Source: Escherichia phage AV116. From it: 64,000 nucleotides of DNA. Below, in pieces: positions 42,258-42,713 of this stretch. How positions within the stretch are numbered: the stretch's first letter is position 1; every line of letters begins with the position of its first letter. Made by a program: the position numbers and the translations under genes. The stretch lies in the sequence record OR352946.1; one strand, 5' to 3'. The notes under the pieces are model-generated. The model saw nothing but the letters and a program-made list of their open reading frames with translations, had not been told where the DNA came from and did no database searches.

Positions 42258-42713
42258 TTATTTTAGATCTTCGGCCCAATCTAGTTTTAAGGGTTCTTTG
42301 TATTCACGGTCGAGAATAACCGGAATAGCTACATCACCACTGAATGATAGTTGGCCAACGTTATATGATAACGTTATATGTGGAGTGTAGTCGTCGAAAT
42401 CATGAGTAGCACCTAAAGCCCGTGCATACTGATGACGACATCTAAGATATTCAGAATCAAGAACTAAAACCAGTACAGCGCCGTCGTCAGTTTTCCATAC
42501 CTCAAAGTGCCCTGATTCAGCAACAGAATAACTACCACTAGATGTAGTATATGGTATGTTTACACGCGAATAACAAATCGTTGAATGAAGCTTTTCACGT
42601 GGTACTGGATTAGGAATTCTTAATTTACGCTGGAGGTCTTCCAGCGCATCAAGTGTTAATTCTGAAAACTTAGCTGCGACGTAGAGGCCTTGTGAAAAGT
42701 CCTCAAATTTCAT
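42258..42713 (-). CDS. 57B: 2H phosphoesterase gp57B (anti-CBASS nuclease Acb1)
   Basis: 151 aa with two H-x-T/S-x motifs (HSTICYS and HITLSY); position upstream of 57A as in T4. Confidence 0.8.

Follow-up and report, generated by a model that had tools for sequence, protein, structure and literature searches.

The open reading frame (ORF) at 42258-42713 on the minus strand of the window, i.e. of the 64,000-nucleotide stretch of Escherichia phage AV116 DNA (OR352946.1) analysed here, is almost certainly the Mosigvirus orthologue of T4 gene 57B and encodes the anti-CBASS protein Acb1, a compact, metal-independent phosphoesterase of the 2H superfamily. The gene is intact, belongs to the Acb1 family, retains the functional residues of that family, yields a predicted fold that superimposes closely on Acb1, evolves under purifying selection and occupies a syntenic position. 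An Acb1-type 2H phosphoesterase had been already proposed for gp57B in a preliminary description of this DNA, and Pfam, the PDB, the orthology with T4 and all functional residues agree with that proposal, which is refined here in two respects: 57B is located on the minus strand, and the phage is a Mosigvirus (RB69-like), T4 itself not being the source. The gene is already known, as the name Acb1 has been given in the literature to a protein identical to its product, which is also covered by a curated Pfam family.

In the ORF list, the interval 42258-42713 is filled exactly by 151 codons and a TAA stop read from the minus strand, which agrees with the size expected from T4, where the protein comprises 152 amino acids. 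The two catalytic H-x-T/S motifs reported earlier are real and can be read directly from the sequence, both in the H-x-T form. The first one, HSTICYS (residues 43-49), is encoded on the minus strand at 42567-42587, where the reverse complement gives the codons CAT TCA ACG ATT TGT TAT TCG, while the second one, HITLSY (residues 112-117), is encoded on the same strand at 42363-42380 by CAT ATA ACG TTA TCA TAT. H43/T45 and H112/T114 correspond to H44/T46 and H113/T115 of T4, respectively. According to the alignment with T4, the C-terminal lid segment DWAEDLK (residues 145-151), with the stacking residue W146 (T4 W147), is encoded at 42261-42281 on the minus strand, and E140 (T4 E141, the contact of adenine N6) at 42294-42296, just upstream of the lid segment. 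On the plus strand, the ORF list contains only chance ORFs of 30-36 aa over 42258-42713, with no support, and the region 39000-43000, scanned with Rfam at E <= 0.1, yielded no RNA features overlapping the gene, only two tRNAs farther downstream.

The similarity to Acb1 far exceeds what chance would produce. The protein matches the Pfam family PF23474 ("Anti-CBASS protein Acb1") with E 1.3e-58 and a score of 197.3 bits, the gathering cutoff being 27, and its residues 8-149 cover the entire profile (1-144 of 144). A sequence search of the PDB reported Acb1 of Erwinia phage FBB1 (7T26/7T27) as the best match, with E 1.1e-58 and 61-63% identity, followed by the distant "Acb1" of a Burkholderia phage (9Q2G/9Q2Y, E 0.007-0.05). 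The match to PHROG 755 (2.4e-65) carries the label "RNA ligase". In a BLASTP comparison with T4 gp57B (NP_049750.1), 129 of the 151 residues (85%) are identical in an alignment with no gaps (E 2e-102), the two proteins being of the same length save for one additional N-terminal Met in T4. Gene 57B of T4 was pinned as Acb1 by Hobbs et al. (2022) through activity-guided fractionation (PMC9117128).

Among the closer relatives, gp57B of RB69 (NP_861847.1) and the Mizar protein XXL68586.1, deposited as "anti-CBASS Acb1-like protein", are each 99% identical to the window protein and differ from it by one residue. The protein MM02_00156 is 100% identical, and it is the same protein ("MM02gp156") that was named Acb1 by Doherty and colleagues (Nature 2025, PMC12657230). 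Nothing of substance differs within the gene between the window and the Mosigvirus versions from RB69, MM02 and Mizar. At the DNA level 57B is 100% identical in AV109, AV114, AV115 and G2469, its exact protein sequence recurs in further isolates, among them MM02 and O157 typing phage 6, and its homologues are present in 1469 phage records. A search of the literature for Acb1 in combination with RB69, aimed at experiments with a Mosigvirus Acb1, returned nothing relevant.

The residues known to be important for the function of Acb1 are all conserved. In the T4 enzyme, the HxT/HxT tetrad is formed by H44, T46, H113 and T115 (Hobbs et al. 2022, PMC9117128), the nucleobases are stacked by the aromatic residues Y12, W74, F107 and W147, E141 contacts adenine N6, and residues 145-152 (in FBB1/T4 numbering) constitute the C-terminal lid (PMC9117128); the H44A substitution in the T4 protein abolishes the activity (PMC9117128). 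Because of the additional N-terminal Met, T4 numbering equals window numbering plus one, and all nine of these residues (Y11, H43, T45, W73, F106, H112, T114, E140 and W146 in the window protein) are identical between the two proteins, i.e. the tetrad, the stacking residues and the adenine-reading Glu. The loss of either catalytic His motif was looked for in the T4 alignment and was not found, both motifs being present. The lid reads LDWAEDLK here and LDWADDLK in T4, which amounts to one conservative change within DWAEDLK. FBB1 Acb1 has the same active-site and pocket residues as the window protein, apart from variants tolerated in the family, namely F at the position of stacking W73 and Y at the position of F106; its first motif is HTT, whereas that of the window protein is HST.

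The same pattern is seen in the wider family. In an alignment of 38 homologues, retrieved from a collection of 5.8 billion proteins and sharing 30-85% identity with the query, the residues G9, Y11, H43, T45, S49, L81, V82, G101, D105, P111, H112, T114 and L115 are invariant, while E140 and W146 are nearly so (37 and 35 of the 38 members, respectively). The window protein and T4 gp57B differ by 22 substitutions, all of them in variable columns, in each of which the commonest residue accounts for no more than 61% of the 38 homologues.

We built an AlphaFold2 model on the basis of the 38-sequence alignment and compared this predicted structure with the PDB by Foldseek. The model has a mean pLDDT of 88.8 and a pTM of 0.82, and its confidence is low only at the extreme termini, in residues 1-3 and 148-151, the latter being located in the lid; the low predicted confidence there fits a flexible lid. 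The apo structure of FBB1 Acb1 (7T26) was matched with Foldseek E 4e-19, rmsd 0.9 Å over 133 columns and TM scores of 0.85 (query) and 0.94 (target), and the structure of the same protein in the 3'3'-cGAMP/product complex (7T27) with E 2e-18 and rmsd 1.8 Å. The BCSR5 phosphodiesterase, representing a distant Acb1 branch, was found at E of about 1e-8 (1.8e-8) and rmsd 4.4-6.5 Å. This Burkholderia phage enzyme (9Q2G, 9Q2Y) also belongs to the Acb1 family and has a 2H fold with a lid, yet it comprises 165 aa, exhibits only 16-18% identity to the window protein (sequence match E 0.007) and stands on a much more remote branch.

Loss-of-function alleles of acb1 do occur in nature, such as the nonsense allele of Bas43, and Bas35 escapers have been selected on type II Panoptes (PMC13577387, PMC12657230), which made it worthwhile to check the intactness of the gene and the selection acting on it. 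The reading frame of the window acb1 is complete and is not interrupted by a frameshift or an early stop codon. By the Nei-Gojobori method, the comparison with T4 yielded dN 0.126, dS about 1.73 and dN/dS 0.073, while that with RB69 yielded dN 0.003, dS 0.126 and dN/dS 0.023, the latter ratio resting on 12 synonymous differences and one non-synonymous difference. Thus, 57B is under strong purifying selection. A decayed or inactive allele was rejected on the basis of the full length, the intact motifs and the dN/dS of 0.07.

Two other readings of the gene have to be weighed against that of a working Acb1. We regard as exceedingly improbable the possibility that its product is a LigT-like 2'-5' RNA ligase or 2',3'-cyclic phosphodiesterase with RNA ends as its substrates, e.g. 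in tRNA repair, instead of a nuclease of cyclic oligonucleotides. Its fold does belong to the same 2H superfamily as that of E. coli LigT, and LigT-type and other 2H enzymes (E. coli LigT 5LDI, MHV ns2, rotavirus VP3) share with Acb1 the two H-x-T/S motifs and metal-independent chemistry, but the substrates of LigT-type enzymes and viral 2',5'-phosphodiesterases are different, namely RNA 2',3'-cyclic phosphate ends or 2'-5' oligoadenylate. The structural similarity to these enzymes is at the superfamily level only (Foldseek E 5e-5 and weaker, rmsd 6.6-8.7 Å, TM 0.45-0.59), as compared to 0.9 Å for Acb1; the window protein is therefore a specific orthologue of Acb1 within the 2H superfamily, and not an RNA ligase of the LigT type. 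The name "RNA ligase", borne by the family in RefSeq and PHROG, would favour a LigT-like enzyme, as would the proximity of 57B to tRNA genes and a weak match to the Pfam family 2_5_RNA_ligase2 (PF13563). This match, however, does not reach the cutoff of 27 bits (15.9 bits, E 0.013) and covers only residues 70-131, in comparison with 197 bits for the Acb1 profile, and "RNA ligase" was rejected as a family assignment since the match to the LigT family in Pfam falls below the threshold. Moreover, the protein retains Y, W, F, W and E, the residues specific for the ligand, and the T4 orthologue was identified by fractionation as the enzyme that degrades cGAMP, an activity lost from lysates of T4 Δacb1 (PMC9117128). 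A secondary activity of Acb1 on RNA 2',3'-cyclic phosphate ends may exist.

It is also very improbable that the protein, while being a member of the Acb1 family, has had its substrate spectrum altered or narrowed by the 22 substitutions at its 151 positions, or that it is functionally decaying. Besides the unbroken ORF, such a reading has to be reconciled with catalytic and ligand-contact residues that are all identical to those of T4, with the confinement of the substitutions to variable columns and with purifying selection that continues on both scales of divergence (dN/dS 0.07 against T4 and 0.02 against RB69). One substitution that might be invoked in its favour is F70, typical of Mosigvirus, which stands in place of the family-majority Leu only three residues away from the stacking W73, and the documented nonsense allele of Bas43 and laboratory escaper mutations (PMC13577387, PMC12657230) demonstrate that acb1 can be lost. 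On the other hand, exactly the same protein is shared by other isolates, and MM02, which is one of them, has been reported to be sensitive to Panoptes, as expected for a phage with working Acb proteins (PMC12657230). A Mosigvirus allele with a spectrum measurably different from that of T4, e.g. one active on cGG or 2'-5'-linked signals, or one less active on 2'3'-c-di-AMP and cA3, the decoys of Panoptes, appears very unlikely; if it were real, the shifted spectrum could change the set of CBASS or Panoptes systems that are evaded or triggered by the phage.

For a working Acb1, a mechanism can be proposed by analogy with the enzymes of T4 and FBB1. The protein would bind adenosine-containing 3'-5' cyclic di- and trinucleotides (3'3'-cGAMP, cUA, c-di-AMP, cAAA and cAAG) in a U-shaped pocket, between the stacking aromatic residues Y11, W73, F106 and W146, with E140 reading adenine N6 and the C-terminal lid closing over the ligand. 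The adenosine would be strained by the enzyme in such a way that, with the tetrad of H43/T45 and H112/T114, its 2'-OH attacks the adjacent 3'-5' phosphodiester bond, the acid-base catalysis being provided by the two His residues without a metal; the 2',3'-cyclic phosphate intermediate would then be converted to a linear product with a 3'-phosphate. With the signal removed, the effectors of CBASS, and possibly also cA3-dependent effectors of type III CRISPR systems, would stay off, which would allow the infected cell to survive until the progeny is made.

The identity of the pocket and of the catalytic residues argues strongly for this activity and substrate range in the window protein, for which cleavage of cGG, cA4 and 3'2'-cGAMP would not be expected. 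T4 Acb1 has been tested both biochemically and genetically, whereas the window allele is known from its sequence: the T4 enzyme digests 3'3'- and 2'3'-c-di-AMP in vitro (PMC12657230), and the deletion of acb1 in T4 results in a more than 300-fold loss of plating on CBASS hosts (PMC9117128). It is by analogy with this system that we infer the enzymatic activity and its substrate range, the timing of expression and the anti-CBASS effect in vivo.

The gene is an ordinary one for an RB69-like coliphage. A megablast search with the segment 41800-43700 revealed 100% identity to AV109 and AV114, 99.9% to G2469 and AV115, and 93.4% to RB69. AV109 is classified as a Mosigvirus (Straboviridae, Tevenvirinae), and from the match to AV109 and its relatives over this segment it follows that the window comes from an RB69-like coliphage, and not from T4 itself. 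On the minus strand, the genes are arranged in the order 4, 2, 3, 1, 57A, 57B, internal head protein genes and tRNA.4/.3/.2, which is the same in T4, RB69 and AV109, and the part from gene 4 through 57B to the internal protein genes is also found in MM02 and Mizar. Pfam assigns a gp19-like fold to the product of gene 3. Gene 1, coding for dNMP kinase, is located at 42948-43682 on the minus strand (Pfam E 2.3e-96), and gene 57A, coding for the tail-fibre assembly chaperone and so annotated in T4 and RB69, at 42713-42943 on the minus strand (PF17594 GP57, E 5.9e-23). Thus, 57B occupies the expected position: it directly follows gene 1 and 57A and precedes the genes of the internal head proteins.

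The stop codon of 57A (42713-42715) overlaps the start codon of 57B (42711-42713) by one base in a TAATG junction at 42711-42715 on the minus strand; the corresponding overlap in T4 comprises 4 bases (6408-6411 in the T4 record), while the arrangement of the 57A end and the 57B start seen in the window is the same in the records of RB69, AV109, MM02 and Mizar. In the Mizar record, ribosome-binding sites have been annotated for the neighbouring genes and none for the 57B homologue. Both the TAATG overlap and the missing annotation fit a translational coupling of 57B to 57A, and the two genes would probably be co-transcribed, mostly late in infection. A T4-type late-promoter-like motif, TATAAATA, was found in a motif search at 43298-43305 on the minus strand, inside gene 1 and some 355 nt ahead of 57A. 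With 8 copies in the whole window versus 8.8 expected, there is no enrichment of the motif, and its occurrence carries no weight alone. T4 possesses the same late-promoter-like motif at the homologous place in gene 1, and in the alignment with T4 the segment TATAAATAATAT is conserved at 12 of 12 positions, the 5' flank being diverged. On the strength of this positional conservation, TATAAATA is a putative source of late transcription of 57A-57B, while coding constraint in gene 1 could be an alternative cause of the conservation. A late promoter would agree with the appearance of Acb1 activity about 15 min after infection in T4 (PMC9117128).

Downstream of 57B, a 79-nt intergenic spacer (42179-42257, minus strand) separates it from the internal protein genes. 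It contains a T4-early-promoter-like element, GTTTACA-17-TACTAT, conserved in T4, RB69 and MM02, which probably serves the internal protein genes. Inside the spacer of this element a 10-bp hairpin can be formed (ΔG -13 kcal/mol for the 96-nt region, z = -2.2). The lack of a T-run after the hairpin and its location within the early-promoter-like spacer make a terminator improbable, and no terminator-like site downstream of 57B was found in the 79 nt.

The two genes that follow on the minus strand, at 41867-42178 (directly downstream of 57B) and 41542-41817, are internal-head-protein-like and form a pair assigned to phrog_7673 and phrog_2667. The internal-protein genes directly downstream of 57B in T4 are different from those of the window, and MM02 and Mizar carry at this place a T4-type ipI "nuclease inhibitor" gene, whereas the window carries two other internal-protein genes. 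Thus, the internal-protein locus downstream of 57B is cassette-like and variable. The 91-aa internal-head-protein product has only about the first 18 residues (MEPKMKT..EFI) in common with RB69 ipI, a stretch that we take to be a putative capsid-targeting N-terminus. The 103-aa product exhibits 96% identity to RB69 ORF156, its end being located 5 codons earlier.

Another gene related to the evasion of cyclic-oligonucleotide signalling is located at 27725-27988 on the minus strand and codes for an 88-aa homologue of the Acb2/Vs.4 sponge, with 98.9% identity to RB69 vs.4 and matches to the Pfam family PF24729 (Acb2_Tad1_hairpin, E 9.6e-18) and to the PDB entry 7UQ2 ("Vs.4", E 1e-29). As both Acb1 and Acb2/Vs.4 are encoded, the phage possesses the same pair of a degrader and a sponge as T4. 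The earlier view of the window as rich in anti-defence genes is partly borne out by this homologue and by the variable internal-head-protein genes. The presence of Acb1 together with Acb2 predicts that many CBASS systems signalling through 3'-5' cyclic di- or trinucleotides with adenosine would be evaded and, at the same time, that the phage would be detectable by guard systems of the Panoptes type, which fire upon depletion of decoy cyclic nucleotides (PMC12657218, PMC12657230, PMC13577387). Such predictions bear on the prediction of host range and on the design of phage therapy, while no new biological question is opened by them.

The importance of the gene lies mainly in annotation, with an intact Acb1 standing behind the labels "hypothetical protein" and "RNA ligase". 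Across near-identical phages, 57B is labelled "hypothetical protein" in most records and "RNA ligase" in RefSeq, "cyclic phosphodiesterase" in two records (including 348Ecol098PP) and "anti-CBASS Acb1-like protein" in one (Mizar). "RNA ligase" is a misleading label, taken over from the LigT superfamily.

Problems of annotation are also encountered in the tRNA locus farther downstream. An ORF of 221 aa at 39762-40427 on the minus strand codes for a GIY-YIG homing endonuclease, recognized as such by Pfam and 83% identical to T4 SegB. It is located between tRNA-Arg(TCT) (39682-39758) and tRNA-Met(CAT) (40469-40540), which are adjacent in RB69, with no seg gene between them, and it looks like a segB-type insertion in the Mosigvirus tRNA locus. 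In the AV109 record, the corresponding stretch (L002, 4000-4660; about 39799-40459 in the window) has been annotated with a shorter hypothetical CDS in place of this ORF, together with a "tRNA-Asn" that overlaps the N-terminus of the SegB-like ORF and at whose position neither ARAGORN nor Rfam finds a tRNA. The tRNA-Arg at 39682-39758, found by both ARAGORN and Rfam, is missing from the AV109 record. The annotation of the tRNA-Asn and of the shorter CDS is probably an error in the deposited AV109 record, the identity between the window and AV109 being established over 41800-43700.
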